From an uncultured Gemmatimonadaceae bacterium (GTDB lineage: Bacteria > Gemmatimonadota > Gemmatimonadetes > Gemmatimonadales > Gemmatimonadaceae): a DNA stretch of 64,000 nt. This document shows positions 35,294 through 53,140 of the stretch, piece after piece. Location of the stretch: assembly GCA_963781585.1 (NCBI GenBank), contig CAWAGQ010000004.1, forward strand, positions 224,001 through 288,000. The letters run 5' to 3'. The translations under genes and the position numbers were made by a program. The notes beneath the pieces were generated by a model that was given only the letters and a program-made list of their open reading frames with translations, was not told the DNA's origin and made no database searches. Positions within the stretch are counted from its first letter, which is position 1. The number at the start of each line of letters is the position of its first letter.

Positions 35294-35367
35294 GGCAGGG
35301 TAGCTCAGGTGGTTAGAGCACGGCACTCATAATGCCGGGGTCGTGGGTTCGAGTCCCACCCCTGCTA
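35294..35367 (+). tRNA. tRNA(CAT), probably elongator tRNA-Met; integration target
   Basis: GGCAGGG/CCCTGCT acceptor stem, CGGCA-CTCATAA-TGCCG anticodon arm, GTTCGAGTC T-loop; Ile2 identity not excluded. Confidence 0.92.
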
Positions 35368-36626
35368 TTCGGAAGCCGCGGGCCCGCACCGGGTTGGCGG
35401 CTTTCCTCGTTAGGTGCCCCGGTTTTCGGTACCACCGGTGGTACCTCAGCCGACCGCGTCGGGCGCTTCGGATCAAGCTCCGCGGCGATCCGTTCCCAGC
35501 GATCGCGCTCGTCGGAGCGTGGCGCGTACCGGCCATACACGGTGGCCACCATCTGCACGTTGGCGTGGCCCAGCTGGCGCGCGACGAGTTCGTAGGGCGT
35601 GCCGGCGCGGATCGCCCGGATGGCGTAGAAGTGCCGCGCGTCGTGCAGCCGATGGGGCGCAAGCTCGAGTGCCGTGAGCGTCTCGCGGTGGACGTCGCCG
35701 GCGTGCCATCGATCGATGCCACGGAAGAGTCGCTCTCCCGGCGTCAGCCGGCGGACGTGGGTCTCGAGGTACGGCCAGGCCCACTCGGCGACCCGGACGA
35801 CGCGATCGCGCGCGTGCGCCTTCGTGCCGCGGGCGCGCACCTCGCGTCGGCCGACGTCCACGTCGGCATCGCTGCAGCGGAGCGCCGCCGAGATCTCGAC
35901 ACCGGCGCCGTACAGCAGCGCGAAGAGCGCGCGGTACGGCTTCCGCGCGTGCTCGACAATGCGCACCACGTCCTGGTGCACGAGCTCCACGACCCGAGGC
36001 CGCCCGGGTGGCGGAGCCGCGACGTCGCGCGCGGGGTTCGTCGTCAAGACGCCGACCTGGACGAGGTAGCCGGCGAAGCTCTGCACGGCGGCCAGGTACT
36101 TCCGGCGCGTTGATCCGGTGATCGGGCGTGATGCAGGATCCGGCCGACGTCGGGATTTCGCACGCGTCGATGCCTTTCGCTTCTGCGGGAGCGTGCTTCG
36201 CTCGGCGAGCCAGCGCGCGATCGCCGGCGCCGTGAATTCTGCGCGCGGGAACACACCGCCCTCGGGCATCAGCGTGCGCAGATGCGCCAGGTAGTGCGTG
36301 CGCGTATCTGGCCGAATCCGGTCCATCAGCCACTCTTGCCAGCGCTCCACGTGCTCAGCCAGGTCAACCTCCTCGAGGCGACCGCGCAGACCCTCGAGAT
36401 CGTTCTCGCGGTACGCGTCGAAGAGCGCACCGAGCGAGAGCGTGCCGTCGACGACCGCGCCCAGGAGATCCCACTCGCGCCGGCCCTTCGGCCCCAGCAC
36501 CTCGAGCATGCGCTCCATTGCCATCGCAGTGGGTTTGTGCGTCGTGCCCGTGGAACGCTTCACCCAGCCATGCGGGGTCGGCACAGCCAGAAACCAGGTC
36601 GGACGGTCGGTGCGCTTGTACACCAT
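35313..36626 (-). CDS. int: Tyrosine recombinase/integrase
   Basis: HDARH, QLGHA and VYGRY box II motifs; adjacent to attL and reads through it into the tRNA antisense. Confidence 0.92.
   Translation of the reverse strand: MVYKRTDRPTWFLAVPTPHGWVKRSTGTTHKPTAMAMERMLEVLGPKGRREWDLLGAVVDGTLSLGALFDAYRENDLEGLRGRLEEVDLAEHVERWQEWLMDRIRPDTRTHYLAHLRTLMPEGGVFPRAEFTAPAIARWLAERSTLPQKRKASTRAKSRRRPDPASRPITGSTRRKYLAAVQSFAGYLVQVGVLTTNPARDVAAPPPGRPRVVELVHQDVVRIVEHARKPYRALFALLYGAGVEISAALRCSDADVDVGRREVRARGTKAHARDRVVRVAEWAWPYLETHVRRLTPGERLFRGIDRWHAGDVHRETLTALELAPHRLHDARHFYAIRAIRAGTPYELVARQLGHANVQMVATVYGRYAPRSDERDRWERIAAELDPKRPTRSAEVPPVVPKTGAPNEESRQPGAGPRLPNSRGGTRTHDPGIMSAVL
35325..35372 (+). repeat. attL core, 48-bp direct repeat
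   Basis: ACTCATAATGCCGGGGTCGTGGGTTCGAGTCCCACCCCTGCTATTCGG identical to 53093-53140. Confidence 0.97.
35428..35445. promoter_or_regulatory. Candidate integrase arm-type/accessory site (left)
   Basis: GGTACCACCGGTGGTACC palindrome, 17/18 identical to 52989-53006. Confidence 0.55.
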
Positions 36627-36629
36627 GCG

Positions 36630-36878
36630 TTAGGCGCTCCGTTGGACGGCGTTCCTCGTGTGCCAGCGCGCCATCCAGGCGCGCACGTCGCGGGGATCGT
36701 ATCGCACGAGCGGCTGGCCCTTGGTGCCGGTACCAGGGAGCAGCACCTTCGGGCAGCCGCTCTCCCGAAGATAACGAGTACTGACGCGGAGAAAGGCGGC
36801 GGCTTCCTTCTGCGTCCAGAGGCCTTCCGCCGGCGACGTCTCGGCGCCGCGGAGCGAGCGGTCGACGGCGACCGTCAC
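36630..36878 (-). CDS. Excisionase-like HTH protein
   Basis: LWTQKEAAAFLRVSTRYL...VRYDPRDVRAW pattern directly upstream of int; GTG start. Confidence 0.8.
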   Translation of the reverse strand: MTVAVDRSLRGAETSPAEGLWTQKEAAAFLRVSTRYLRESGCPKVLLPGTGTKGQPLVRYDPRDVRAWMARWHTRNAVQRSA

Positions 36879-37609
36879 GGCGCGGCCCCGCGTGTGCAGC
36901 TTATGGGGGCGCACCCCACCGGATAATTCCGGGTGCACCCCGACGGCTGGCCCGCCCCGAGGTAGGGCTCCGGTGGGCCGGGAGGGTTCGGGAGATGGAC
37001 TGCGTGCGGCGCCGGATCCGGCACCGCCGGGTGCGTCGCCAAGGGCGGCGATGGATCCGCGAGCCCGATCAAGGCAGCATGACACTGCTCGAGCACCGCT
37101 GCGCAGTCTTCGTAGAACGCGGTCCAGCGCTCGTGCCAAGCCGCATCCCCCAGGTACTCGCACGGCGGGCGATCGGATGCTGACTGGTATTCCGACTTCG
37201 TTATCGCCGCCATCCAGAACCGGTGGCACTCCGCATCCTCCAGCATTTGCGGCACCAGCGCCAATGCTCGCGCTGCGAGATCTCGGAGTGGAGCGCCGCC
37301 GACAGCAGCCGGCGCGATCGGGGCGGTGGCACTGGCGCTCACCTGACGAGGCCCCGCGGATGGAGGAGCGCGCCGCGCGTGAGGAGTCCCGAGCCGCCAA
37401 GGGCCGCCAGGCTCGGCCCCGGGGAGCTCCCGCGGCCCGGCGCCGATCGTGGATCGCCCCGCAGAACCCGAGCGAGCGGCGAGTGGTCCGCTCCTTAGGC
37501 GTGGCATGGGAACGCGCTGCTCGCGCCGCCTGGCCTTGAGCCGCCGGGGCGGTCCTCGGTGATCCGCCTCGAGGAAGGCTGGGGTGGACCCGCAGGCCGG
37601 CGCCCTCAT
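36875..37609 (-). CDS. Hypothetical protein
   Basis: Start and stop overlap both neighbours (ATGA/GTGA-type coupling). Confidence 0.5.
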   Translation of the reverse strand: MRAPACGSTPAFLEADHRGPPRRLKARRREQRVPMPRLRSGPLAARSGSAGRSTIGAGPRELPGAEPGGPWRLGTPHARRAPPSAGPRQVSASATAPIAPAAVGGAPLRDLAARALALVPQMLEDAECHRFWMAAITKSEYQSASDRPPCEYLGDAAWHERWTAFYEDCAAVLEQCHAALIGLADPSPPLATHPAVPDPAPHAVHLPNPPGPPEPYLGAGQPSGCTRNYPVGCAPISCTRGAAP

Positions 37610-38106
37610 GCGAGCGCCACCTCGTATTCCGGAGGTGGCGCGACCGGCTCGAACTGTTCCGATGGCGGAGGCGGACGGCGTCCCGCTGCGGCCCGCTGCA
37701 GCAGCTCCCGGCGCGCGGGGTGATCCCAATCCAAGGGCACCAGAACCCACGAGAGATGCCGGCGCGGATCCCGCCGGTACTGCTCTTCCAGATGCCATTG
37801 ACGTGCCGTCTCAATGTCGAGCGGACCGGAGGCGAGGCCCGGATTGTTCGCACGCGTCGCCACGTAGCAGATCGCCCAGGTCACGGCATCCGGAACGGGG
37901 TACTCCGCCCGAGTGCCGCGCCGCCGAACCGGCAGGCCCTTTCGCGCCCAGTTGCGCAGCGTCTGGTCGGTGACGCCGAACGTCTTGCACATCACGTCCT
38001 GGGAGAGGTGCGCGGGGCGCCGGGGCGAGCGCGCAATTGGCGCGTGCAGCGTTAGGCTCGCGAACGGACTCGGCCTGGGCTGGCGGCGCTGGCGAGGCGT
38101 GCTCAT
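37606..38106 (-). CDS. Lambda gpNu1-like small terminase / Rpp-like DNA-binding protein
   Basis: FGVTDQTLRNWARKGLPV...YPVPDAVTW matches the Nu1 winged-HTH pattern (FGASIRTIQNWQEQGMPV...YDSAAVIKW). Confidence 0.72.
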   Translation of the reverse strand: MSTPRQRRQPRPSPFASLTLHAPIARSPRRPAHLSQDVMCKTFGVTDQTLRNWARKGLPVRRRGTRAEYPVPDAVTWAICYVATRANNPGLASGPLDIETARQWHLEEQYRRDPRRHLSWVLVPLDWDHPARRELLQRAAAGRRPPPPSEQFEPVAPPPEYEVALA

Positions 38107-38163
38107 CTCACCGGTGCCCACAAACCAAAAGGGTGCGTGCGGGCCGCCGTACAGAAGCCGATT

Positions 38164-38205
38164 GGGGTTCTCGGTCCCCCGGTGAAGACCTTCCAGGGAG
38201 GACCC
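38164..38205 (-). other. Candidate cos site (cosQ + cosN-like)
   Basis: Minus strand GGGTCCT (lambda cosQ sequence) followed about 19 bp later by GGGG-ACCGAGAA-CCCC, just upstream of the Nu1-like gene. Confidence 0.5.
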
Positions 38206-38260
38206 GCGGCCCCCTCGGGGGCCCCTCGTCCGCGGACAAGTCCGCGCATGGTCCGCGGAC

Positions 38261-38461
38261 TCATCGGGGAACTCCGAGCGCGCCCGGACGCTCGCCGTCG
38301 CCGCGAACCGCGACCAGGGGGGCGCAGTCGCAGATGCCGAGCCCGGCGAGCATCGCGCAGCCGGCGTCGTGGTGCACGTCGACCTGGATGACTTGGCCGG
38401 GCCGCAGCTCCAGCGCCCGGAGTAGCTCCAACGCGATCGGCATGTAGGCCGGTAGCTTCAT
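38261..38461 (-). CDS. Small Cys/His-rich hypothetical protein
   Basis: HHDAGC...CDCAP; start overlaps the helicase stop. Confidence 0.6.
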   Translation of the reverse strand: MKLPAYMPIALELLRALELRPGQVIQVDVHHDAGCAMLAGLGICDCAPLVAVRGDGERPGALGVPR

Positions 38462-39612
38462 GCGCCCTCCGCCAATGCCAGACGCGTCGCCTCTGGCTCG
38501 CTGAGCAGCCCCGGATTCTCTCCTTCTAGCAGCCCGCCGGCTCCGTCGCGGAGTCCAGCGTCTTGCCGGACAGTCCGTAGTCCGGGTCTTAGAGACCCGG
38601 ATACGGACGAACTACTGTCCGAGCAGTCAGACGCCCGAATGTCCGCGAACCGTTCGCGAACGGTTCGCGAACCGATTTCGAGACCCAGCTGAGTGATACC
38701 GGAAGGGGTGGGGTACCATTTCCCATCCCTGTTCTCGGCAACGAGTTCCCGCTTGATGAGCTCAGCCTTGATGGCGTAGAATCTCGTCTTGCCGATGCCG
38801 GATCGGTTCAGCCACTCCGTGGGCTTCAACGCGCGCGCGGATTCGTGCAAAGCGGCCAAAACGGTTCGCGAACCGATTTCTAATGTTCCGGCTCCCGTCG
38901 CACGCTCCACGACGACTGAATCGCCGCGGCTCACGAGCTCGAGCAGAAGCGGATCTCCGGGCTGGAAATCCCGTGCCTTCACCACGGCGAGCTTCACCGT
39001 TGATCGGCCCATCCGCTCGACCGACATCACCACGTCCGCGCGCCCGCGGAAGGCCGAGGAGCCTCGCTCTCGGCTCCCTTCCCAGCCCGCATGGTGGTTG
39101 ATCAGGGCCGCGCAGCCGAGGGCGAGCTGCAGCCGGCCGACGCCGTGCAGGAATTCCCCGAAGTGTTGTGCGGAGTTTTCATCGAAGCCCGGGGGCGCGG
39201 TGGCGGCGAGCGTATCGATGATCACCAGGGCCGGTCTGAAATGCGCGGCCTCGAGCGCGGCCAGGAGCTCTGCGATTCCTTCGGGGAGGTGGAAGGCCAC
39301 CGGCTCCCCGAGATAGCGCACGCGTTCCAGGTTGCAGCTCTCGTGCGCGCTAATCCACGCCTGGACGCGCGAGGGGATGCCGCCGAAGCCCTCGGCGATG
39401 ACGTACAGCACGGACGAGGGGCCCGCTATCGGGAGCCCGGCGAATGAGCGCCCAGTGGCGATGCTGTGGCCCATGCCGATCAGCAGGTGCGTCTTCCCGA
39501 CGCCCGACGCGCCGTACATGACATGTAGGCAGCCCTCGAATACGAAGCCCGGGAGCAGCGCCGGAATCGGCTTGGCGTCGGCAAGGAGCTCCTCGGCGGT
39601 AATCAGTTTCAT
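38458..39612 (-). CDS. RepA/AAA_25-type SF4 helicase with C-terminal wHTH
   Basis: Walker A GASGVGKT, AEG, IIDTLA Walker B, DENS, HHAG, RGSSAF motifs. Confidence 0.9.
   Translation of the reverse strand: MKLITAEELLADAKPIPALLPGFVFEGCLHVMYGASGVGKTHLLIGMGHSIATGRSFAGLPIAGPSSVLYVIAEGFGGIPSRVQAWISAHESCNLERVRYLGEPVAFHLPEGIAELLAALEAAHFRPALVIIDTLAATAPPGFDENSAQHFGEFLHGVGRLQLALGCAALINHHAGWEGSRERGSSAFRGRADVVMSVERMGRSTVKLAVVKARDFQPGDPLLLELVSRGDSVVVERATGAGTLEIGSRTVLAALHESARALKPTEWLNRSGIGKTRFYAIKAELIKRELVAENRDGKWYPTPSGITQLGLEIGSRTVRERFADIRASDCSDSSSSVSGSLRPGLRTVRQDAGLRDGAGGLLEGENPGLLSEPEATRLALAEGA
38641..38880. repeat. Iteron-like repeats (candidate replication origin)
   Basis: GT(T/C)CGCGAAC at 38641, 38652 and 38663 (11-bp period); 21-bp exact repeat at 38659-38679 and 38860-38880. 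Confidence 0.6.
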
Positions 39613-39878
39613 CGCCCGCTCCTCAGCACGGGCCGAATCGAACTCGCGCGCCGCGAGCCGCCTGATGATTGGCGAGCTTCGCGTCGGGCCAGCTCTAGCT
39701 CGAGTGCGTTCAAGCCTCGCGTTAGGATGCCGAGGAGGACCGGGCCCCGGTGCGGCGCTGGCTTCCTCGCGACGTCGACGAGCCAGGCGCGCATGACCAG
39801 GCGCCGTCGCTCGAGCTCGGTGGTCGGGCCTGACGCGTAGGCCCGCAGGGCGGCTTCTCGTGCCGCGTCGTCGATCAT
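39609..39878 (-). CDS. Hypothetical protein
   Basis: Co-oriented; stop overlaps the helicase start. Confidence 0.5.
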   Translation of the reverse strand: MIDDAAREAALRAYASGPTTELERRRLVMRAWLVDVARKPAPHRGPVLLGILTRGLNALELELARREARQSSGGSRRASSIRPVLRSGR

Positions 39879-39924: not shown

Positions 39925-40167
39925 TCATTTCGCGGCTCTCTGCGCGAGCTCCGCCTTCGCGCGCTGGAGCGCCGCGATCAGCTCGTCGAGGCGGTGCGGC
40001 GGAACCGTGACGCCCTTGCGCGTGGGGTGCCATCCCCCGTCGGCGGCGCGGAAATACGTCCGCACGTCGACGAATTGGGCGTCCTTGTATCGCCCCACCT
40101 GAATCTGCAGCCGCTCGCCGTCGCGGCCCTTCGCGATGACGGCCAGAGGCGCCGCGGTGTCGCTCAT
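39925..40167 (-). CDS. PC4/YdbC-like ssDNA-binding protein
   Basis: YKDAQFVDVRTYF...WHPTRKGVTV PC4 signature. Confidence 0.88.
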   Translation of the reverse strand: MSDTAAPLAVIAKGRDGERLQIQVGRYKDAQFVDVRTYFRAADGGWHPTRKGVTVPPHRLDELIAALQRAKAELAQRAAK

Positions 40168-40493
40168 CGCGACCCCCCGACTCGATCGAGAGCGCGGCGC
40201 AGCTCCCGCAGTTCATTCGCGCGGAAGTTGAGGCCCCTCCTCGTCGGCAGCCACTTGCCATCGGTGGTCTTGAAGAACTGGCGAAACCCAATCTGACGGA
40301 CTCCCTTGAAAGTCCCGACCGTCAGCCAGATTTGGGTCGTCTCGTCGCGCGGGAAGCGCGCGAGGATGCGCAGCGGACTCGCGGGGGCAGGCGCGGGCAG
40401 ATTCCCTCGCGGGGGGCTGGCGCGCCGCGAGGCATCGTGTCTACTTTTCAAACGCTCAGGTTGCATGTTGACCAGAGTGGTTTGTGGATTCAT
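40164..40493 (-). CDS. Second PC4-like protein
   Basis: FKGVRQIGFRQFF...WLPTRRGLNF PC4-like signature. Confidence 0.78.
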   Translation of the reverse strand: MNPQTTLVNMQPERLKSRHDASRRASPPRGNLPAPAPASPLRILARFPRDETTQIWLTVGTFKGVRQIGFRQFFKTTDGKWLPTRRGLNFRANELRELRRALDRVGGSR

Positions 40494-40539
40494 GTCGCGC
40501 GCCCCCGCGGATGCCATCGTCGGGGGCGCGGTGCTTTTT

Positions 40540-43007: not shown

Positions 43008-43328
43008 TCAGGGGGCGAGCCTCGGGCCCATCGGGTCGATGCGATCGAGGTGCTGCTCGAGCCACGCGATCGCGTCGAGCACGTCCTCGTACTCCCAGCT
43101 GCGGCCCTCACCCCACCAGGGCAGCGTGAGCTCCGCGATGACAACGCCGGTCGACGTCCGCGCCGCCAGGCGCGTGAGACCGCCGGCGGCCGGCAGCTGC
43201 ACCACGCCGCGCTCGCCTGGCCAGTCGCGCCCCTCGGGCTGATCCCCGGCGTCCGCCCGCTCGACGAGCGAGACCGTCCTCCGCCGATGCTTCACTCCCG
43301 CGTTGTTGCTGGGCAGGCTCTCGCCCAT
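43008..43328 (-). CDS. Hypothetical protein
   Basis: ORF downstream of the ImmA-like gene; start uncertain. Confidence 0.45.
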   Translation of the reverse strand: MGESLPSNNAGVKHRRRTVSLVERADAGDQPEGRDWPGERGVVQLPAAGGLTRLAARTSTGVVIAELTLPWWGEGRSWEYEDVLDAIAWLEQHLDRIDPMGPRLAP

Positions 43329-43356
43329 CCCATGATCCCCGCGCCTCCGGAAGCGG

Positions 43357-43860
43357 TTACTTCGCGGCATGATCCGCCCCCGTTACATCGCGCCGCGTGG
43401 AGTCAACGGAGGCCGCGCCCGTGCCGCCGTGCTGCCCCGCCAGGAGGCGATCGACAAAGAGATCGGCTTCCACCTCGACTTGCGCATCGATCGTGGCACT
43501 GCGGGCCGGCGCGGCGTCGCCAACGTGGTTCAGCGCAATGTGCGCGAGCTCGTGGAGCACGGTGCGGACCAGGGCTGCTCCGCTGAGCTGCACGTGCACC
43601 AGGATCACGGCGACACCGCCGGCGGCGAAGACGAGCCCGGGTCGCGGGAGCGGCGCGCGGATCAGCACGATGCGTTCGCGCTCGAGCACCGCGATGAGGC
43701 TGGCGATGGTGATCTCACGGCGGAACTCCGGGTGCCGCTGGCGCCACGCTTCGACGGCCAGGCGCACGGTCAGCACGCGCGGCCGCAGCCGGCGCAGCGG
43801 CTCTCTGGGGAACGGGACGAGCGCCGACGTCGGCGCCGTGTACGGGACTGCGGTGGCCAT
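43357..43860 (-). CDS. ImmA/IrrE family metallo-endopeptidase
   Basis: RTVLHELAH HExxH plus EVEADLF motif. Confidence 0.82.
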   Translation of the reverse strand: MATAVPYTAPTSALVPFPREPLRRLRPRVLTVRLAVEAWRQRHPEFRREITIASLIAVLERERIVLIRAPLPRPGLVFAAGGVAVILVHVQLSGAALVRTVLHELAHIALNHVGDAAPARSATIDAQVEVEADLFVDRLLAGQHGGTGAASVDSTRRDVTGADHAAK

Positions 43861-43992
43861 GAGGATCCCCTCCGGACTGGTGGCGCCCGGAGGCCCGCCC
43901 GCGCTACCTTACGCGCGCAGGCCCTCGGGTCTGTGGGGAGCCAGTCGGAGATCCTTCCTGGGAGACACCGGCTGGCTCTTTCTATGCCGGAG

Positions 43993-44039
43993 ATTATACG
44001 CAAAAGCGAATTGCGTCAATATGCAGCTTTGCGTATAGT
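43993..44039. promoter_or_regulatory. Back-to-back divergent promoters with an inverted-repeat operator
   Basis: + strand TTGCGT-17-TATAGT; - strand TTGACG-15-TATAAT; TATACGCAAA...TTTGCGTATA inverted repeat. Confidence 0.7.
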
Positions 44040-44047
44040 GCAGTCCC

Positions 44048-44272
44048 GTGAGTCCGATCCGCCTCCGACTGCGCGAGCTCCGCGAAGCGAAGGGCCTCTC
44101 ACAACAGGCCCTGGGAGAGCGCGCCGGCGTCCGCCAGGCGACGATCTCGCAGCTCGAATCTGGACGCAAGCAGCGACTCGATTTCGGAATCCTCGAGCGT
44201 CTCGCCGACGCTCTCGGCGTGGAACCGGGCGAGCTCCTCGAGCGGGACGGGAAGCGGAAACGGGCTCGTTGA
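44048..44272 (+). CDS. Small XRE-family HTH regulator
   Basis: LRELREAKGLSQQALGERAGVRQATISQLESG; near-leaderless GTG start. Confidence 0.9.
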   Translation: MSPIRLRLRELREAKGLSQQALGERAGVRQATISQLESGRKQRLDFGILERLADALGVEPGELLERDGKRKRAR

Positions 44273-44275
44273 AAG

Positions 44276-45040
44276 ATGGCCGACATCAGTAGGGCCCTTG
44301 TTGAATCAGTCGCGCGTGGCCTGGACGTCGCGCACGAATTCCTGGATGGGGTCGAGGATCTCGGCGGACACATCGGGCTGATCCAAAAAGCCTTCAACGG
44401 TGTCCAGCAAGCACGTCTGAGGCGCTTTCTGCGCGCATTGGCTGCGCGGGAGCAGGAATTGACCGATGAAGAACGGGAGCAGCTCTACAAGCGACTCGAC
44501 ACGAGAGCTGGCAGGGAGCTCCTGGTTGACGCAGTCGACGCAGTCATCCGAACGAATTCGAAGCGCGCGGCCGCCGCTCTCGGACTCCTTATCGGGGATC
44601 CTTCCGGTGAGCGGTTCAATCCGAGCTTCCGGCGTAATGCGTGCGAGGCTCTGCGCGGACTCTCAGACGACCAGGTTGACCTTTTTCTCGCGTTGCTCCG
44701 AATAGCGCGCGAAGTACCGCAGCAATCTCAACGCACGATTCAGGGCGACGAATACGTAACGGACATTGGCATTTGGCACGCTGCGGCAAACGCCCAAGGG
44801 GTCAGCCTCCTCATTCAGCCCTTATACGCAAGACTCGGCCTAGACCCTTGGACTATCAGAAGTCGCACAAATCAGTTGATCACGCGCGGGCTCTTATTGC
44901 CGGACGTAGGGACGCGCGTGGACACCCAAGAATATCTGACTTTCGCATTCGGTGGCGAGTCCCTCCTGTTCGAGGATCTCTTCGTACGCGCTCGAGGCGC
45001 GATCGGTCCCGACGGAGATGACAGCGAACTCTCGAGGTGA
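44276..45040 (+). CDS. Hypothetical cargo protein (possible Abi-alpha-like defence protein)
   Basis: Co-transcribed with the XRE gene; atypical codons; helical N-terminus and wHTH-like C-terminus. Confidence 0.6.
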   Translation: MADISRALVESVARGLDVAHEFLDGVEDLGGHIGLIQKAFNGVQQARLRRFLRALAAREQELTDEEREQLYKRLDTRAGRELLVDAVDAVIRTNSKRAAAALGLLIGDPSGERFNPSFRRNACEALRGLSDDQVDLFLALLRIAREVPQQSQRTIQGDEYVTDIGIWHAAANAQGVSLLIQPLYARLGLDPWTIRSRTNQLITRGLLLPDVGTRVDTQEYLTFAFGGESLLFEDLFVRARGAIGPDGDDSELSR

Positions 45041-45211
45041 TCGGACGAGGATTCGGACGCCTCCCGCTGCTCCAGATCTGGGACCGGCTGGACTGTATGG
45101 GGGGAAGGAGGAGAGGGGGGTCTGTACGCACAGGGAGCACTCCGGCCATCCCTCCACTGGCTCATCCCCAGGTTGCCAACGGCACTGCCACCACGTCACG
45201 TTACTTAGCGA

Positions 45212-46051
45212 ATGCCCGCACCACTTGTCGCCCCCGACTCCCTGCAGATCAGGCGCTCTGCATTTGCCCAGATCTACAGTCGACCTATTGAGATCCAGCG
45301 CGCCGAGGCTCTTGCGTTCTATGAGCTGATCACTCGAGACATCGGGCACTTTCCCGAGATGCTGAACCAGCCAACCGGGCTCGTGTTCAAGCGGCGCGCC
45401 GGCCAACACGTCTCGGAGGTACAGGTGAATCGCGTGAACATCGCCGGCCAACCACGTGGACCAGCGCCTGCGGCAACTCGGTTTCTATTTGCAGAGACGG
45501 GATCGACGCGCCCCGTCTCCGAGTTCAGCGCCGAAGTGGCTGCTGCGGTGGAGGCCTTCCGATCGAAGTGGCACAGCGTCGGCCGGGTCACGGTGACGGA
45601 GGTGTCCTTTCAAGCCACTGTCGCTGTGAACCACCCGGAGGGGTCAATGGGCTTCATCCGAGAGAGACTGGTCCCATCCGCAAACGACAAGGCACATCTC
45701 GGGCGCGATTTCCCAATCGCCCAAGTGAGGCTGACTGCTCCGCTCCAGCTCATCGCCGAGGGCGGACAGAGCGAGCCGCGTCATATACTCGACGATGCCG
45801 AAATCAGCCTGAGGTTGGAGCCCTTCGCCGAGGACCCCCGTTTCCTCTGGCTCGAATCCATTTATAAGTGGCCCCTTGTCCAGATGAGCCTGCAGGATGT
45901 GCCCATACCCGATGACGTTCGTTCAAGTCTCCCCCTCGGCCGCTCTCTGGAAGTCAATCAGAGCGAACGTGAAACGACTAGCTACATCACTGCGGGCTAC
46001 AACTATGTGAACAACAATGTCACCCCGTACCTCCAAGCGCTGGGTCGCTGA
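45212..46051 (+). CDS. Hypothetical cargo protein
   Basis: 279-aa ORF, lower GC than host genes. Confidence 0.65.
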   Translation: MPAPLVAPDSLQIRRSAFAQIYSRPIEIQRAEALAFYELITRDIGHFPEMLNQPTGLVFKRRAGQHVSEVQVNRVNIAGQPRGPAPAATRFLFAETGSTRPVSEFSAEVAAAVEAFRSKWHSVGRVTVTEVSFQATVAVNHPEGSMGFIRERLVPSANDKAHLGRDFPIAQVRLTAPLQLIAEGGQSEPRHILDDAEISLRLEPFAEDPRFLWLESIYKWPLVQMSLQDVPIPDDVRSSLPLGRSLEVNQSERETTSYITAGYNYVNNNVTPYLQALGR

Positions 46052-46071
46052 TTCTCCGGGAGACGCTTCGA

Positions 46072-46368
46072 ATGTCAACCCTTACCAGTGCAAACCCGCT
46101 CGAGGTGTCCATGTCTGAATCTGGCGGGATGTTGCCAGTGCCGATCTTGGTCCTCGCCCTTTCGCTGCAGGGAGTCACGATCACCGACGCTCGGCCGCCG
46201 ATGGCGGTCGCACCCGCAGCCCTTCCAATCGGCGCGGCGACGCAGGGAGGCGATGCCCTGTCGTTTGCAGATGACGACCTCATGCCGGTCGGTCTCTCGA
46301 CCATGGAGCTGGCTGCCATGGCCCGCGGTCGTATGGGCGGAGACGCGAATCACATGCTCGACATCTGA
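46072..46368 (+). CDS. Small hypothetical protein
   Basis: Fills the gap between two co-oriented cargo genes; start uncertain. Confidence 0.4.
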   Translation: MSTLTSANPLEVSMSESGGMLPVPILVLALSLQGVTITDARPPMAVAPAALPIGAATQGGDALSFADDDLMPVGLSTMELAAMARGRMGGDANHMLDI

Positions 46369-46379
46369 CCAACGGGAGG

Positions 46380-46836
46380 CCTGTCCCCCTGTTCGAAGAT
46401 GCCAGCGGTCCGCTCTCACAGGGGGACCTCTTTCTCGTCGGACTGGGACGAGGACCGCGCGACACGATTGGGTGCGGTCCTTGTCTTGAATCATTCGTGC
46501 GAGCTTGACAAATCCGCCGTGGACTTGGTCCTCGTCGCGCGCGTGATCCCTCGCATGGGAACGGACCCGGGACTATGGGGCGACATCCAGCGCGGTCGAG
46601 TGTGGCACGCCTTGCTCGCGGAGGGACTGATGCCGGAGGCTTGGATCAGTCTCCGGGAAATCCTTCCCATATCGAAAGCGGTGCTGATAGAACGGATTGC
46701 ACGCAGAAGGCTTACTCTTACAGAATCCGGTCGCCTCGCGCTGGCCGAGAAGGTGTTCCAGTGGCTCACTAGGAGCTTGCCGCCCGCCAAGCGCGGCCCA
46801 CAGCTCTCATTTCCTATCACCGATCCCCGGCCGTAG
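46380..46836 (+). pseudogene. PemK/MazF-like hypothetical protein, apparently frameshifted near 46434
   Basis: LSQGDLF in one frame and VLVLNHSCELDK...VLVARV in the next frame. Confidence 0.5.
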
Positions 46837-46922
46837 TCCAACACGGGTAGCCGCCGCCGGTGCGATCTTCCGCTCCGCGACCGATGGGGTAGGTTCCGAA
46901 GCAGTCCCGTCATGGAGCGCCG

Positions 46923-47303
46923 GTGCCACGACCCTCGCTGAGGCCCACCTGGACCGAGCAGGCCCTCCGCCTGATCGGATGGGTCACGGTCATCGTGTCG
47001 ATCTTCGCGGGCATGGCATGGCTCGCGAATTCTGGCTCCGATCCCGCGGCCGCGGCATACGGCGTCGCTGCAATGCTCGTCGGGCTCTGCGCGGCGCCGG
47101 TGACGTTCGCGCTCGCGGAGATCCTCGAGCGATTGCGCCTCACTCAGGAGCGCGCGCTGCAGTCCGAGTGGGATCGCGAGCATCCGAGGTCCGAGACGCC
47201 GCCGCCGGCGACCAGGCGCGATAGAGAGCGGAGCAGGGAAGCACCGGTGCCGGCACCGGCACCTGCGCGTCAGCCAGATGCAGCCCCGCGGCGATTCCGC
47301 TGA
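46923..47303 (+). CDS. Two-TM membrane protein
   Basis: Two hydrophobic helices; GGAG RBS. Confidence 0.65.
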   Translation: MPRPSLRPTWTEQALRLIGWVTVIVSIFAGMAWLANSGSDPAAAAYGVAAMLVGLCAAPVTFALAEILERLRLTQERALQSEWDREHPRSETPPPATRRDRERSREAPVPAPAPARQPDAAPRRFR

Positions 47304-47759
47304 GGCGACGTTAGGCATAGCATGTCGAGAACCGCTCCGGCGTTCCCAGGCTGTGGCCTGATCCCTCTTTGCCTCCCAAGGAGCTCAGGATGCCGGTGGC
47401 TTTGGGGGACCAGGCGAGTCCGGATGGCACTTTTTCCGCTTCTTCCCGGACCCGCACCCGCATCCGGCGCAACGGGTGGGCCCCGACACAAAGAGCGCTC
47501 CTGGCCGGCGAACGCGGTCCCGGGTCCGGCATCGGCGGCTTTACGATCTGCAGGACCTCGCCCGCGCGGCGACGTTCTGGGAGACGCGAATGCCCGGCGT
47601 GCCATCGGCGCTGCGTATCGACATTGAACGCCTGGTGCAGCTGACGGCGCCATCTCCTGGCCGCACGAGGGGGTGAGCTCTCCGCCGTCCCACGGCCCGT
47701 ACCATTGGCATTGCCCGAAAGTCGCCCGGGGCCGTCGGGGGACCCGGCGAGATCGGGCC

Positions 47760-48092
47760 TCAGGCGTGATCGTGCGAAGCCGGGGCGGGTGTCGGCGTCG
47801 CGGCGAGCGGTGAAGCTGCCGGCGCGGGGTCCCGGGAAAAATGAAGGCGGTACTCGCGGGTCCGGCGGTCTGGTGACGCCTGCGCCTCGAGGTAGCCGGC
47901 GCCGCTGAGGCGACGCAGCGCGACGCTCGCCGTGGACTCGCTCACCACGGCCAGGCGCGCGACGACGACGAGCTTCACGTGCCGGAACTCCACGAAGTCG
48001 AGCACGTCGCTGATCGCGAGGAGCACGCGCACATCCGCGGCCCGGAGCTCCGGCGCGCCGGCGGCCTGGGCGATCGCCGGAAAGAGCGTCAC
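47760..48092 (-). CDS. Small winged-HTH protein
   Basis: VARLAVVSESTASVALRRLSGAGYL pattern; starts 1 nt after the tape-measure-like gene stop. Confidence 0.65.
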   Translation of the reverse strand: MTLFPAIAQAAGAPELRAADVRVLLAISDVLDFVEFRHVKLVVVARLAVVSESTASVALRRLSGAGYLEAQASPDRRTREYRLHFSRDPAPAASPLAATPTPAPASHDHA

Positions 48093-48093
48093 G

Positions 48094-51000
48094 TTAGGCC
48101 CTGGCTGTCATGCCCAGCGTGCGCAGATCATCATCGTTGATCTCTGCGATCGCCTTCCGGATCTGGCGCGCCAGCTCCTTCGAGACCTTGTCGGCAGCGC
48201 CGCGCGCGTCGGCTGGGACGCCATCGAAGCGCACGTTGAGCGTCGTCGTAATCTGGGGGGCGAAGACGGAGCCGCTGCGGCCGACGCTCATCGCGATCGC
48301 GGCCGTCGTCGTTGAGGGCAGCGCGGGCGGCTGGACCGGGCCGAGCGTGAGGCGTGGTAGGCCGATCGGCGCGAAGGCGGGTGCCGCGGGCAGGCCCGCG
48401 TCCTGCTTGGCGAATTCCACCAGCTGCCGCGTGAGGGCCACGAGCGTGCGCTGGTAGTCGAGGAGGCGATCCCCTTGGATGGCGGTGAGCTGCGGGGTGC
48501 CACTCAGGACTTCCGTGCCGGCGCCCGCCGCGGCAGTCACGCCCTGGCTGACCGCGCTCGGGATCGCGCGGATGGCGTCCAGGATCTGGAGGATCGCCTG
48601 CTGCGTCGTCTTGTCGGTGGTGCGTTCGCCGAGGGCTATGAGCTGCTGCTCCAAGGCGGCGCGCCCGCCAGCGGTCGTCACATCCGCTCCGGCCGTCACG
48701 GCCGCGAGCTCCGGCGTCACTTTGCCCAGGGCCTGGACCGTGCGCACCGCCTTCTCGATCGGGTCGGTGATGTTCTCGAGATGGAGCCCGAAGCTCAACG
48801 CATCCGCGGCACTCTGCAGACTATTCGCCGCCTCGGCGGCGGCAGTGTCGAGCGTGCCCAATGCGGCCACGAGCGCGTCGATCTGCTCGGTCGTCAACCC
48901 CTCGAGCTGGAAACCGCCCGCCCGCAGGTCATCGAAGAACCGACGGATTCGATCGTCGGCCTGCTGCACGCCGGCCGCCGTCGTGAGGTCGATGCCGTCG
49001 AAGAGATGCGCGAACGCCGGGAATGCTGCTTTGAACCCGTCGACCTTGGCGGCGAACTTCGCGATCGGATCGGTGATGTGATCAAACTCGATGGTGAGGT
49101 CCGATCGACTGAGGATACGCTGCGCCGCGTCGGCGGCCTCCTGGTCCGCCCGGTCCAACAGGCTGAGAATGAAGGTGATGCCGTCAGCGAATGGCTGCTC
49201 CGCCGCCGTGATGCCATCCTTCGCGATCTCCGCGTAGTCGGCGCGGAGGCGCTTGCGGAGTTCATCGCGCGCGGCCGGATCCAGCGGATTGAAGGAGCCC
49301 AAGCCCTCCGTGAGCGACGCGAATCCTTCGGGCAGTTTGAAGTTCGCCAAGGACTGCGTGATCTGATCGCTGACAGAGGTCCCGAGGACCTCAAAGCCGG
49401 TGCGGATATTGTTGAAGGCGTCGTTCACATGCGACGCCAGCTCATCGGCCGCAGCCGCGCCGGCATCGAAGCTGTCAGATAATCCCCCGATCGCCTGCAA
49501 CTGCGCCTTCTCGGCCTCCGTCAGGATGCCATCCGCGAGCATACCCTCGATGATCGGCTTGATCGATTTCCTGAATGCGTCGCGCGAGGAGAAGTCGATC
49601 TGCGCCGCGAGCTCCGGGAAGTCCTTCGTGAAGGCCTCGACGGCCTTCTTCGTCGCCTCGTCGACCGAGAGCACGCCGTACTTGACGCCCACCGCGAACA
49701 CGTCGAGCGAGCCGCTGAACGCATCGGCCGCGAGCTGCGCCGCATTCTCGAGGGAATGGATCCCGTCGATGATGTCTGAGATCGCCTGCAGGAATTCGTC
49801 TGGGGAAAGGTTGCCGAGCTGGCTCAGGTCCAGCTGGCCGATGTTGTCGACCAGGCCCGCGAGCCGCGTGATTGCTTCACTGCGCCCGGCCTGCGTCGTG
49901 AGGTCGAGCCCGGAGAGCGCCTGCTGGATCGCGCTCGAGCCGCCCGCGGCGGCGTCCGTCGCCGCGGCGATCGTCGCGGTCACCTTCTTGAGTTCCCCAT
50001 CCCATCCCGTGAAGGCCTCGGGCTGCGCCTTGATGTCGATGTCGAGGCGTTTGAGCGCCCCGCTCCAGCTCTTCAGGATCTGCTCGAGCTGGAAGGTCTT
50101 GATCGCGGCCTGCAGCGCCTTGAACTCCGACACCAGCGGCGGGTTGCTGAGCCCCACGCCGAAGCTCTGGGCCGCCTTCTTGAGGTCATCCAGGCCGATG
50201 CCGGCCGCATGCAGCGCGGCGAGCAGATCCGCGGACGTGGTGATCGGGCCTGTAACGAAGCGCCCCTGCCCGCCGCCTAACGTTCCGACGTCGAAGCGCG
50301 TCTGGGTGAGCGACAGGTCGCGGATTGCCGCGGTCTTCGCCGGCGTGGTGGTGAGCTGGATCGCTGCGACCAGCCCGTCGCGGAGATCGCGCAGCCGCTC
50401 GTTGTTCTCCTTCAGGATGCGGTCGTGCTCCACATCGGCCGGCGATTTCCCGAAGAGCCCACCGATCGTGCCGGCCAGGGCGATGCCGCCACCGAGGATC
50501 TGGCTCAGGCCGGGCAGCGCCGAGACGATCCCACCTCCGGTCGAGAAGAGCTGACTGAGTCCGCCGGCGCTCTTCGCCAGGCTGCTGATCTCGCGGAAGC
50601 CGTCGACGAGCTGCACGACGGATCCGAGGACCTTGGTGATCGCGTCGTCGGCGCCGAGTAGAGCGGACGCGATGCCGAAGGCGGCCTTCGCGGCGTCACC
50701 CAGATGCTGTCCCAGCGTGGCCGCCTGCTGGTTCCCTTCGAAGTAGGCGTCGACTTCGTCCTGCTTCGCCTTCGCGATGCGCTGGCCCAGGTCCGCGATC
50801 GCCGTCTCGAGGGTCAGCCGCTCCTTGTCGAATTCGGCGCCCTTGCCGGAGAGCGCCGCCAGGCGATCGGCCAGATCCGCCTGCTGACGCTGCAGCTCAG
50901 GGAGCTCGATGCCAATGTCTTTCGACTTCGCGATCGCCTTGTTCGCGTCCTCGATCGCCGCCGTCGTGTCGATCAGGCTCTGCTCAGCATCCTCGAGCTG

Positions 51001-52371
51001 CTGGCGTTGCTCGTCGGTGATGAAGGGATTGTCGGCCAGCTCCCGCTTCAAGTCGGCGAGCGCGAGCTGCATGTCATCGACGGCGGTGGTGGTGAGCGCC
51101 GCGCGCAGCTTCTCGAATTGCTCCGCCGCCTTGTCCGCGCTCAGCTGCGTGAGCTGCGTGCGCACACCGACCGATCGGGCCTCGATGTCCGCGAAGGCCT
51201 TCGTCGTCTCCGTGGTGGGCCGCTTGATGTCCTGGAAGCGCTGGCGAAGATCGCGCATCGCGCGGTCGTAGTCGTCGAGCGATACGTTGCCCTTGGCCGC
51301 GCGCTCGGCCAGGTCGTTGAACGCGTCGGAGAGTTCGCGCGTGGCCTTCGCGGTCGCTGCCTGCTGCTCGGCCAGCGCTTTTGGATCGGCGGCCGTGATC
51401 TTGATCGCCTGACGTTCCGGCCGCTGCTGCACCCCTGGCTGCTGCACGCGGGCGACGATGTCGGCGAACTCCTCCTGCAGCGGCCGCGCCTTGTCCTCGA
51501 GCTCCTGGAGCGCCTGCTGCAGGGCGCCGAGCACGAAGATATTCCGCTGCCGGATCGCCGTATCGATCTCCGCCTTCTTGGCCGCGATCTTCTGCTCGAG
51601 GAGATCGAGGCTGTCGTCGAACTGGTTGGCCGGCGTGCCCTGACGAATGATCTGCGCGCGCGCGGTGAGGCCGGTGACATCCCCGCGGTTCTGCAGCTCG
51701 TCGAGCGCGGCCTTGGCCTTCTGCTTCGTCTCTTCGATTTCGCGGCGCGCCCGCGTGAAGAATTCGAGAATGGCCTGTCCCGCGATGGCCACGGATCCGA
51801 CGATCACGCCGCCGGAGCCGAAGGCGAAGGCGAGACTGCTCACGGTGGTGAGCAGCGTGCGTGCGGCCTGGCCACCCACCTTCCCGGTGCGGCTCATGGT
51901 TTCCGCGGCGCTGGCGATCGCGATCGCGGCGCCGGCGTATCGATCCCGAGTCACACTGGCCGCCAGTCCCTGCGCCTTGAATCCCTCGACCGCAGCGAGG
52001 CCCGCCGTGCGTTGGGCGCCGAGCGCCGGCACCAACCCGGCCGTGGCGCGCTCGATTCCGGCCGTCGCACGCGCGGCCTGCGTCTCGATCCGGATCCGCT
52101 CATCGAGCGTGAGGTTCCCCGCCTGCAGCGCCTTCTGCAGCTGCCCCTCCGCGGCCACGAGCTGCTTGAGCGATTGGGCGCGGGTGCCCTCGAGCTCCGC
52201 GCCGGCCGACAGCCGCGTGATCCGGTTCGCGATCGCGTCGATACCGGCGGCCGATTGCTTGGCCGAGACCTCGATCGAGCGGAAGGCGGTGCTCGCCTTC
52301 GCGGAGAGCTGCTCCAGCGCGCGGCTATCGGCGACCACCTCGACCATGAGCTTCTGCGGGATAGTTGCCAT
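48094..52371 (-). CDS. Phage tail tape-measure-like protein (1425 aa)
   Basis: N-terminal LMVEVVADSRAL, Ala-rich helical/coiled-coil body, Gly-rich hydrophobic segments, internal DLTTxAG repeats, C-terminal APQITTTLNV...ELARQI. Confidence 0.8.
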   Translation of the reverse strand: MATIPQKLMVEVVADSRALEQLSAKASTAFRSIEVSAKQSAAGIDAIANRITRLSAGAELEGTRAQSLKQLVAAEGQLQKALQAGNLTLDERIRIETQAARATAGIERATAGLVPALGAQRTAGLAAVEGFKAQGLAASVTRDRYAGAAIAIASAAETMSRTGKVGGQAARTLLTTVSSLAFAFGSGGVIVGSVAIAGQAILEFFTRARREIEETKQKAKAALDELQNRGDVTGLTARAQIIRQGTPANQFDDSLDLLEQKIAAKKAEIDTAIRQRNIFVLGALQQALQELEDKARPLQEEFADIVARVQQPGVQQRPERQAIKITAADPKALAEQQAATAKATRELSDAFNDLAERAAKGNVSLDDYDRAMRDLRQRFQDIKRPTTETTKAFADIEARSVGVRTQLTQLSADKAAEQFEKLRAALTTTAVDDMQLALADLKRELADNPFITDEQRQQLEDAEQSLIDTTAAIEDANKAIAKSKDIGIELPELQRQQADLADRLAALSGKGAEFDKERLTLETAIADLGQRIAKAKQDEVDAYFEGNQQAATLGQHLGDAAKAAFGIASALLGADDAITKVLGSVVQLVDGFREISSLAKSAGGLSQLFSTGGGIVSALPGLSQILGGGIALAGTIGGLFGKSPADVEHDRILKENNERLRDLRDGLVAAIQLTTTPAKTAAIRDLSLTQTRFDVGTLGGGQGRFVTGPITTSADLLAALHAAGIGLDDLKKAAQSFGVGLSNPPLVSEFKALQAAIKTFQLEQILKSWSGALKRLDIDIKAQPEAFTGWDGELKKVTATIAAATDAAAGGSSAIQQALSGLDLTTQAGRSEAITRLAGLVDNIGQLDLSQLGNLSPDEFLQAISDIIDGIHSLENAAQLAADAFSGSLDVFAVGVKYGVLSVDEATKKAVEAFTKDFPELAAQIDFSSRDAFRKSIKPIIEGMLADGILTEAEKAQLQAIGGLSDSFDAGAAAADELASHVNDAFNNIRTGFEVLGTSVSDQITQSLANFKLPEGFASLTEGLGSFNPLDPAARDELRKRLRADYAEIAKDGITAAEQPFADGITFILSLLDRADQEAADAAQRILSRSDLTIEFDHITDPIAKFAAKVDGFKAAFPAFAHLFDGIDLTTAAGVQQADDRIRRFFDDLRAGGFQLEGLTTEQIDALVAALGTLDTAAAEAANSLQSAADALSFGLHLENITDPIEKAVRTVQALGKVTPELAAVTAGADVTTAGGRAALEQQLIALGERTTDKTTQQAILQILDAIRAIPSAVSQGVTAAAGAGTEVLSGTPQLTAIQGDRLLDYQRTLVALTRQLVEFAKQDAGLPAAPAFAPIGLPRLTLGPVQPPALPSTTTAAIAMSVGRSGSVFAPQITTTLNVRFDGVPADARGAADKVSKELARQIRKAIAEINDDDLRTLGMTARA

Positions 52372-52377
52372 CGCCGG

Positions 52378-52950
52378 TCACTCCAGCGGGAGAAGGGAGG
52401 ACTGCGCTCGATTGCCGAAGATCATCAGCAGTTTCAGATAGTCCTGGACCGCCTTGAATCGCTGGAGGGCCAGGAGCGCGGTCTCGGGCCCGATCATGGC
52501 GCCCTCGTGGAGCGCCTGGGTGGCGCGCTCAAGATCGCTGATCCCCTGGTGAATCACCCGAATGCTGGCGCCGATTACGCCCGCCAAGTCGACGAGTCGC
52601 GCCTCCTCGGCCGGCGTTCGCCCGGGCCTCGCCGCCAGCCGGCGATAGTGCTCGTTCTGTTCGAGCAGGCGCCCCCCCCCGAGCTGCGCCGAGAGCCGCA
52701 TGACCCCCTCATGCCCGAGGACGGCCCCGATGGTCTTGTCGAGTGATCGGAGCGCTGAGGCCCGCTCTGCGTCGTTGAGGGTCGCATCCTCGGGCGTCGC
52801 GGGGGCCGTGAAGACCTGCCGGATCCGGCCGAGCTCCGCGAGCATCTGATCGGCGAGCTGCTCGCGGTAGGCGAAGGCGGCCTCGGTGAACTCGCGCAGC
52901 AGCGCGGGCTCGATGCCCGGAAAGATCGGCGGCGTCCGCGGCGCGATCAT
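52378..52950 (-). CDS. Hypothetical helical protein upstream of the tape-measure-like gene
   Basis: Co-oriented, 6-nt gap to the next gene. Confidence 0.6.
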   Translation of the reverse strand: MIAPRTPPIFPGIEPALLREFTEAAFAYREQLADQMLAELGRIRQVFTAPATPEDATLNDAERASALRSLDKTIGAVLGHEGVMRLSAQLGGGRLLEQNEHYRRLAARPGRTPAEEARLVDLAGVIGASIRVIHQGISDLERATQALHEGAMIGPETALLALQRFKAVQDYLKLLMIFGNRAQSSLLPLE

Positions 52951-52988
52951 CGACCCGCGGTCGCTCGACGTCCGAGGCGCGGCCACCT

Positions 52989-53006
52989 GGTACCACGGGT
53001 GGTACC
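52989..53006. promoter_or_regulatory. Candidate integrase arm-type/accessory site (right)
   Basis: GGTACCACGGGTGGTACC, matches 35428-35445. Confidence 0.55.
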
Positions 53007-53092
53007 ACAACTTGCGCTGCGCACTGCCGCATCACGCCGCGTCATTCCTCGTTTTCCCCCGGAGCGGCACTTTCCCCCTCGGGGTCGACGCG

Positions 53093-53140
53093 ACTCATAA
53101 TGCCGGGGTCGTGGGTTCGAGTCCCACCCCTGCTATTCGG
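53093..53140 (+). repeat. attR core, 48-bp direct repeat (3' half of the tRNA)
   Basis: Identical to 35325-35372. Confidence 0.97.

Follow-up and report, generated by a model that had tools for sequence, protein, structure and literature searches.

Classical phage-inducible chromosomal islands (PICIs) contain no virion structural gene, and the capsid-forming PICIs (cf-PICIs) contain capsid, portal and terminase genes. The first demonstrations that satellites manipulate the tails of their helpers date from 2025–2026 and concern the PICI-like elements (PLEs) of Vibrio cholerae, with the EPIPs (Extracellular Prophage-Inducing Particles) of Mycolicibacterium aichiense as the second case. PLEs are satellites of phage ICP1; their own tape-measure protein (TMP), tail assembly chaperone and baseplate hub replace those of ICP1 in chimeric tails, and incorporation of the PLE TMP was shown by western blot and mass spectrometry as well as from the length of the tails (PMC12987554). 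Putative tmp genes of PLE-like elements and of cf-PICIs are also reported there. EPIPs are satellites of ~11 kb with a TMP that is linked to altered or longer tails (PMC12822802). Here, we describe an island of an uncultured Gemmatimonadaceae bacterium (assembly GCA_963781585.1, contig CAWAGQ010000004.1), located within a stretch of 64,000 nucleotides that was analyzed as a whole and is referred to as the window. We propose, with a probability of roughly 0.6, that this island is an integrative, helper-dependent, PICI-like satellite that supplies its own TMP. The only virion gene recognizable in it is an intact TMP gene, which appears to have been captured from tailed phages of the Gemmatimonadaceae.

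Like PLEs (PMC12987554), the island is a capsid-less integrated element with its own tape-measure gene, and a small gene lies directly upstream of the TMP gene, in the position of the chaperone. Substitution of the TMP in helper tails, demonstrated for PLEs (PMC12987554), is proposed here from gene content. The hosts differ (Vibrio versus Gemmatimonadota), and the helper of PLEs is a lytic myovirus, whereas the helpers of the present island would probably be temperate phages with lambda-like heads. In further contrast to PLEs, the island yielded no hub gene, and a cI-type repressor and an ImmA-like protease form part of its PICI-like backbone. EPIPs share with the island a small satellite genome containing a TMP gene and a gene of the small terminase subunit (TerS) type, but they are ~11 kb in size and encode a serine integrase as well as an annotated major capsid protein, scaffold, head-tail adaptor and stopper (PMC12822802); the island measures 17.8 kb and encodes a tyrosine integrase, and no capsid, scaffold, adaptor or stopper gene was found in it. 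With PICIs the island shares a tRNA-site integrase, an Xis gene, a repressor switch, a replication helicase, a protein with a TerS-like DNA-binding domain, variable cargo and a size in the range of 10–18 kb. It differs from them in carrying a TMP gene, and the capsid, portal and terminase genes of cf-PICIs were not found in it. The gene order also differs from that of the Staphylococcus aureus pathogenicity islands (SaPIs), as the switch of the island is located 5.6 kb from int, with the replication genes in between.

A preliminary description of this locus had stated that PLEs supply their own TMP, in agreement with PMC12987554, and had left the broader impression that the architecture is undescribed. 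That impression was overstated, since both PLEs (PMC12987554) and EPIPs (PMC12822802) carry their own TMP. No phage satellite of gemmatimonads was found in a literature search. The novelty lies in the lineage and in the minimal gene set; satellites that supply a TMP were already known. The island suggests that tail manipulation extends to a distant soil phylum without cultured representatives here, and in a form pared down further, with the TMP as the sole virion gene on a PICI-like backbone. A TMP-carrying island introduces no new principle, and its function is proposed from sequence, yet several items can be tested: a TMP family with a module replacing PF10145, an unannotated ~300-aa partner family in phages, and an orphan candidate chaperone.

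Island boundaries and the tape-measure gene

The host assembly, G000, is a metagenome-assembled genome (MAG) of 5.7 Mb in 17 contigs, 93.5% complete with 7.2% contamination, and the window corresponds to G000:C4:224001-288000. A repeat search of the window revealed a direct repeat of 60 nt with 95% identity (35320–35379 and 53088–53147) at a spacing of 17,768 bp. The exact 48-bp att repeats of the preliminary description are borne out: the 48-bp core is identical in the two copies (Table 1), and the 5.7-Mb assembly contains exactly two copies of the first 30 nt of this core. Because the left copy forms the 3′ part of a tRNA-Met gene, the 17.8-kb element is inserted in the 3′ end of this gene. 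The att site in tRNA-Met and the tyrosine integrase next to it support a discrete, integrase-bearing island, as had been proposed. The GC content is 67.7% in the island and 65.7% and 68.2% in its flanks, with a lower value of 63.3% in a 3.8-kb stretch at 43.9–47.7 kb. The right flank is chromosomal and contains the glucose-6-phosphate dehydrogenase (G6PD) gene at 54143–55519. In keeping with a Gemmatimonadaceae host, the best matches of this G6PD include MAGs of Gemmatimonadota and Gemmatimonadaceae at 73–74%, next to MAGs with other labels at 73–75%, and the TMP homologue of G067, a genome of the same family, comes from a Gemmatimonadaceae MAG. A second tRNA-Met(CAT) gene is located at 33875–33949, 1.3 kb upstream of the att-site tRNA-Met.

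P0001, the 1425-aa product of the gene at 48094–52371, had been taken for a tape measure, and this assignment is supported both by homologues that contain PF10145 (PhageMin_Tail) and by the phage contexts of its relatives. A search of the full library returned 327 homologues of P0001 at E≤1e-3, 145 at E≤1e-10 and 49 at E≤1e-30. PF10145, at residues ~90–280, was detected in 10 of the 36 best hits scanned, in one of the three hits of the first search and in one of 50 weaker hits, and weak TMP PHROGs were matched by three of 47 homologues scanned. P0001 itself matched no TMP family in Pfam or PHROGs, giving only weak coiled-coil or SMC-type matches; no match to it was found by tblastn among 50,697 phage records, and a profile of the 16-row TMP alignment found coiled-coil noise only among PDB sequences.

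The region from residue ~290 to ~1350 of P0001 is homologous to the C-terminal parts (~1000 residues) of PF10145-bearing TMPs; residues 399–873, for example, are 33% identical to the PF10145-bearing P0006 (E 6e-52). The PF10145-bearing homologues align to P0001 from residue ~290 on only, while the homologues that also align with its N-terminal ~290 residues are without a Pfam family. PF10145 is absent from P0001, and hhalign gave a probability of 0.8% for the two types of N-terminal module, i.e., no detectable relation. As judged from these comparisons, P0001 belongs to a TMP lineage in which another module of ~290 aa stands in place of the PF10145 core. Phage-borne homologues with the same N-terminal module as P0001 include those of G067, G229, G178 and L167. 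Other properties are shared with PF10145 TMPs, including a coiled-coil composition, hydrophobic Gly/Ala segments (residues 173–206 and 615–633 in P0001) and relatives in the TMP position. P0001 is rich in Ala, Leu and Gly as well as in coiled coils. Its ORF is open and full length in comparison with its homologues, with M1 and A2 conserved. Coding was assessed with frame plots and with a codon model derived from 545 long ORFs in the host genome, in which the TMP gene has the highest score of the region, 0.41 (upstream ORF, 0.30; downstream 110-aa ORF, 0.19; host G6PD, 0.33). Many of the TMP homologues (P0012–P0031 and others) contain small matches to PF10410 (DnaB_bind), with zero significant stretches; these probably reflect a short, repeated helical motif (ITDPxEK-like) rather than a primase domain.

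The TMP gene is tightly linked to both of its neighbors. Six nucleotides separate the stop codon of the upstream ORF from the TMP start codon, and the gene encoding a 110-aa winged-helix protein begins 1 nt past the TMP stop codon. The upstream protein (190 aa, or 210 aa for the longer form) could plausibly act as a tail assembly chaperone, given the position of its gene. Its AlphaFold2 (AF2) model, calculated for the 190-aa form, is all-helical and of low confidence (pLDDT 62.6), with no Foldseek match in the PDB at E≤1e-3; the ESM Atlas provided no lead for this protein. A G/GT-type frameshift in this ORF was considered and rejected, as a single frame codes throughout.

The contexts of TMP homologues elsewhere are predominantly those of phages. 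A profile of 16 TMP family members was searched against 401 genomes of the phylum at a threshold of E≤1e-10, and 17 of these genomes, G000 included, contain a match. Twelve contexts besides the window were examined; matches outside these are found in G236 (two), G399, G011, G367, G420, G213 and G248, with a weak one in G013. In 10 of the 12 other contexts, the TMP homologues are located in or beside phage structural-gene modules or fragments of such modules. Among these 10, head genes are present in G144, G067, G112, G138, G229 and L043, and tail genes only in L167, G178 and G180. Genes for the large terminase subunit (TerL), the portal and the major head protein lie upstream of the TMP gene in G144, G067, G112 and G138; G144 also contains head-morphogenesis, scaffold, adaptor and neck genes, and the other three contain genes for a protease and a decoration protein, with a Dit gene downstream in G138. 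Homologues of the TerL, portal, protease, decoration and major capsid protein (MCP) genes of prophages of this type are encoded in G229. The order in the IMG/VR contig L043 is portal, MCP, adaptor, neck and TMP (phrog_991 2.7e-22). In L167, a Gemmatimonadaceae MAG contig found with P0013, a neck gene is followed by genes for a 487-aa and a 314-aa protein, the TMP and tail proteins. The best GTDB match (6.8e-168) is located on a 5,981-bp contig of G178, in which the upstream ORFs are 55–75% identical to those of L167, and in G180 tail protein genes are found on either side of the TMP gene. A smaller TMP alignment (A2) retrieved one locus in viral contigs and one short contig among metagenome contigs.

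Directly upstream of the TMP gene in G144, G112, L043 and G178 lies a gene of an unannotated family of ~280–340-aa proteins (alignment A3). tblastn placed members of this family upstream of the TMP gene in G229, G259 and L167 as well, for a total of seven phage-type contexts; in G259, the locus is at a contig end and has a scaffold-like gene downstream. The A3 family may be a new family of tail assembly chaperones. The 190-aa protein of the island shows no similarity to it (hhalign probability 0.2%). With regard to terminases, the TMP-family prophage of G067 encodes a Nu1-type TerS (phrog_57) and a GpA-type TerL (phrog_15); G112 and G138 contain GpA-type TerLs like that of G067, and G229 encodes homologues of these TerLs.

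The island itself was annotated with Pfam, PHROGs, NCBIfam and PADLOC, using 23–27 candidate ORFs and 13 alternative ORFs. None of these ORFs matched a capsid, portal, TerL, tail-tube or lysis family, nor were hub-like, scaffold or adaptor families seen among them. tblastn with 50 lineage-specific head, tail and TerL-like proteins likewise found no match in the island. The absence of capsid, portal and large terminase genes stated in the preliminary description is thereby borne out, and no remnants of such genes were detected among the island ORFs.

Table 1. Features of the island in window coordinates, partner-family genes and comparable islands
Feature	Position	Strand	Evidence and remarks
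tRNA-Met(CAT), complete	35293..35368	+	ARAGORN; 3′ part 35325-35368 inside attL core 35325-35372
Tyrosine integrase, 437 aa	35313..36626	-	PF00589 3.1e-9; phrog_1 5.9e-32; 3′ end overlaps attL
Xis-like helix-turn-helix (HTH) gene, ~80 aa	36630..36872	-	phrog_66 1.2e-4; coding potential
Stretch without convincing coding frame	36873..37600	.	Frame plots; no family matches among ORFs there
171-aa protein, Nu1/MerR-type N-terminal HTH (TerS-like DNA-binding domain only)	37606..38121	-	phrog_57 5.3e-7; MerR 4.9e-4, below cut-off
AAA_25 (RepA/DnaB-like) replicative helicase, 384 aa	38458..39612	-	PF13481 1.6e-25; phrog_2850 7.3e-31; phrog_906 5.5e-27
Three palindromic GTTCGCGAAC motifs and an exact 21-nt repeat	38641..38890	.	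Candidate origin/iterons or operator sites; 3′ part of helicase ORF
Two tandem PC4-like genes (single-stranded DNA-binding fold)	39925-40167 and 3′ part of 40164-40712	-	PF02229 5.3e-12 and 6.9e-8
Three uncharacterized genes, 257, 209 and 72 aa	40540..42199	-	Coding scores; no family above threshold
HTH_3 (cI-like) repressor, 235 aa	42292..42999	+	PF01381 3.5e-7; phrog_3037 2.8e-11
120-aa uncharacterized gene and 167-aa ImmA/IrrE-like metalloprotease (43357-43860)	43008..43860	-	Peptidase_M78 0.006, below cut-off; phrog_1914 2.8e-5
Lower-GC (63%) cargo	43870..47700	.	Likeliest genes 44276-45040 (+) and 45212-46051 (+); ORF strand at 46075-47653 uncertain
110-aa winged-helix (MarR-like) protein	47760..48092	-	MarR_2 0.0024 and HTH_27 0.0031, both below cut-off
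TMP homologue P0001, 1425 aa, intact	48094..52371	-	Homologue searches; phage context of relatives
190-210-aa all-helical orphan protein	52378..53010	-	Chaperone position; no family or fold match
attR, displaced tRNA-Met 3′ end	53093..53140	+	Repeat search; identical to 35325-35372
A3 family members	L024:17453-18385, L030:16688-17554, L043:7702-8538, L040:2873-3814		No Pfam or PHROG match
G002:C35 island, 16.3 kb			Bounded by 44-bp exact repeat ending in tRNA-Asn
G303:C9 island, 18.5 kb			Bounded by 44-bp repeat from tRNA-His
Third island, own genome	G000:C13:116000-125000		Beside tRNA-Leu: integrase, PrimPol/AAA_25, HTH_17, 508-aa TerL-like, then DUF4238 gene

Comparable islands in the Gemmatimonadota

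A locus at the same tRNA-Met is found in G001, a genome of the same genus. Its left flank ends at C25:245662 and its right flank starts at C25:302438, with 57 kb in between. The first element, of ~27 kb, starts at the tRNA-Met and contains, in this order, an integrase, a 67-aa Xis-like gene, a 386-aa TerS (phrog_1482 1.7e-18), a 542-aa primase, a repressor, a cro-like gene and cargo. The integrase is 44% identical to that of the island described here, and the Xis-like proteins are 65% identical over 57 aa. The cargo of this first element consists of a methyltransferase and a helicase and is defence-like; neither a head gene nor a TMP was found in it. Two remnants with further att copies follow at 27.58 and 29.36 kb; they share 97% and 91% identity, respectively, with the att plus integrase end of the present island and indicate tandem accretion at the tRNA-Met site. 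From its gene content, the G001 locus is read not as a prophage but as a second capsid-less island, in which the backbone is the same but the cargo differs. The homologous locus is accordingly not a full prophage from which the present island could be a deletion derivative. The predicted order in the excised circle of the present island is TerS-like gene, Xis, int, attP, 190-aa ORF and TMP. Simply deleting the interior of a phage late operon would not place int/attP between the TerS-like gene and the TMP operon.

Two islands on other backbones also contain TMP genes of this family. The G002:C35 island encodes a P4-type integrase, an AlpA-like HTH_17 protein, a DUF5906 primase, a TerL-like protein (phrog_2 5.1e-25), a stretch of 77 aa that matches a neck protein and an intact TMP of 1602 aa, the N-terminus of which is ~30% identical to PF10145-bearing proteins. 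The G303:C9 island contains an integrase, DnaB pieces, an AAA_25 homologue of the helicase of the present island, a TerL-like gene and TMP-like ORFs. In the third island, on contig C13 of the host genome itself, no TMP was seen. Its TerL-like protein (phrog_5902 9.3e-19, phrog_2 5e-17) belongs to a family that is also present in the G002 and G303 islands, at 24–31% identity.

Homologues of the island helicase were found in 16 of the 401 genomes (the unpublished G216 counted), and of these 16, only G000 and G303 also contain a P0001-family TMP. PF10145 was not detected in the five genomes with the closest helicase relatives. Searches of genome contigs with P0001 alone found no related locus, and neither the helicase nor the 210-aa ORF retrieved a relative from viral contigs.

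A proposed satellite with its own tail ruler and the competing readings

If the island is a satellite, its cycle could be pictured as follows. Derepression and excision would yield a circle in which int-attP is joined to the rightmost operon, consisting of the genes for the 190-aa protein, the TMP and the winged-helix HTH protein. The island TMP would then be built into tails made of the tube, hub and fibre proteins of the helper, in the manner of PLEs, and the small Nu1-like DNA-binding protein would direct the island DNA into helper capsids. The Nu1-type TerS and GpA-type TerL of G067, together with the TerLs of G112, G138 and G229, would fit such a role of the Nu1-type HTH protein. Tail length corresponds to ~0.15 nm per TMP residue, a rule by which a ruler of 1425 residues would specify a tail of ~200 nm.

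Several observations weigh against this reading. The TerS-like similarity of the 171-aa protein is limited to an HTH, and the ~300-aa A3 partner family of the seven phage-type contexts was not found in the island. P0001 is without the PF10145 core. Coding is uncertain in ~4.5 kb of the island, and in G303 the TMP-like ORFs are distributed among three different frames, which indicates that such genes can decay. Searches of the contig libraries did not retrieve a close relative of the island as a whole. Furthermore, PF05065, PF10145, phrog_15, phrog_29 and phrog_21 have no match in the island's own MAG, at its completeness of 93.5%. The host had been suggested as a place to look for a helper prophage, and none was found in the MAG by profile searches and tblastn: the 50 lineage-specific head, tail and TerL-like proteins matched only a cellular-looking protease and the C13 TerL-like gene in the host genome. 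Paralogues of island proteins were not found in the host genome, and blastn of the island against the phage contexts retrieved revealed no shared non-coding (cos-like) segment.

The missing helper and the stretches without coding signal are also in keeping with a decaying or domesticated prophage remnant, in which int, att and a stray TMP persist without a transfer function. The decay of the TMP-like ORFs in G303 points the same way, as do the tandem remnants in G001, in which the att and int end of the present island recurs, and the fact that TMP homologues elsewhere are mostly found in prophages. Such a remnant is nevertheless unlikely, because neither profiles nor lineage-specific tblastn detected any head or tail remnant in the island, the att copies are identical, and the intact TMP gene surpasses the rest of the region in codon adaptation. 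The same-site relative in G001 is capsid-less as well, and the placement of int/attP between the TerS-like gene and the TMP operon is unlike the outcome of a simple late-operon deletion. Another possibility is that the 1425-aa protein never enters a virion, the island being a phage-independent integrative element and P0001 a long coiled-coil protein with membrane segments. The lack of a TMP family match in Pfam and PHROGs, where P0001 finds only weak coiled-coil matches, and the difference of its N-terminal module from PF10145 would agree with this. However, relatives with the same N-terminal module occupy the TMP slot of phage tail modules, and the family scans of the island revealed neither conjugation genes nor other genes for transfer, making this reading highly improbable.

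The facts that suggest a satellite, i.e., a capsid-less island with a TMP, would equally suit a satellite or defence island in which the TMP is mainly a weapon, a non-cognate ruler that poisons or mis-measures the tails of infecting phages and protects the host population. The methyltransferase and helicase in place of the TMP in the sister island of G001 indicate that this slot holds accessory cargo, and PLE11 provides a precedent for tail assembly as a target of satellite interference (PMC12987554). Yet the interference factor of PLEs is Rta and not the TMP, which serves transmission (PMC12987554). In addition, PADLOC gave no island match above noise, and a full-length ruler of 1425 aa with conserved ends exceeds the needs of a decoy, so that we regard a primarily defensive role as improbable.

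Returning to the helper-dependent satellite that supplies its own TMP, a broader and more tentative proposal can be made. The island could belong to an undescribed Gemmatimonadaceae family of satellites that integrate at tRNA genes and combine an int-Xis-TerS-helicase/primase-switch backbone with an exchangeable slot, which would hold either defence genes, as in G001, or a bare tail ruler, as in this island and, on other backbones, in G002 and G303. In this island, the ruler is accompanied by an orphan helical protein instead of the ~300-aa partner of the seven phage-type contexts in which the upstream gene was comparable. If this were true, a TMP and a novel chaperone would be enough to re-measure or re-key a helper tail, and these would be the first satellites known in the Gemmatimonadota.

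Backbone and cargo genes of the island

The integrase, the helicase and the divergent repressor/HTH switch of the preliminary description were all confirmed by Pfam and PHROG matches (Table 1). The 72-aa ORF is divergent to the repressor gene and hence takes the position of cro, and the ImmA/IrrE-like protein carries a HELAH motif, with HExxH at residue 103. Other genes described from the sequence stood only in part. The Xis-like gene is supported by its PHROG match and by its relative in G001, but convincing coding is confined to the last ~80 codons of the 407-aa ORF (36630–37853). A homologue search with this ORF found none, and the ESM Atlas provided only excisionase-like leads for it (scores for the 407-aa and 190-aa ORFs were 0.80–0.88). 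The product of the Nu1-like gene matches phrog_57, but the match covers the N-terminal HTH alone, with residues 39–107 of the 171-aa protein aligned to positions 13–92 of the 199 of the TerS profile; a pairwise comparison also linked this protein to the N-terminus of the G067 prophage TerS ORF (E 1e-4). Likewise, the description of all core ORFs as intact holds for the full-length 1425-aa ORF but is doubtful for 36873–37600 and ~46075–47700, where coding potential is poor and the gene content uncertain. The former stretch, of ~0.7 kb between the Xis-like and TerS-like genes, contains long ORFs on both strands, with an incoherent frame and no homologues found; G001 has its 386-aa TerS in the equivalent position.

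A weak or frame-inconsistent coding signal is also seen at ~38415–38730, where the GC content is 0.60–0.62. The candidate origin or operator sites in the helicase region lie within 38648–38880, and the two copies of the exact 21-nt repeat are located at 38659–38679 and 38860–38880. A scan for promoters and terminators remained at chance level.

The cargo region had no matches in Pfam, PHROGs, PADLOC or NCBIfam, and PADLOC gave no family above noise for any ORF of the island. A homologue search with the 275-aa cargo ORF found none. The 279-aa ORF is an orphan with only marginal matches in two of 400 other genomes, and its AF2 model was unusable (pLDDT 31). PDB sequence searches with four uncharacterized island ORFs returned nothing meaningful, and at ~46075–47700 no clear coding frame was seen under the host codon model. 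The two PC4-like genes are 37% identical to one another. A 273-nt piece of the lower-GC cargo (43995–44264) has a counterpart of 70% identity at G000:C4:662296-662565, on the same contig at a distance of ~400 kb.

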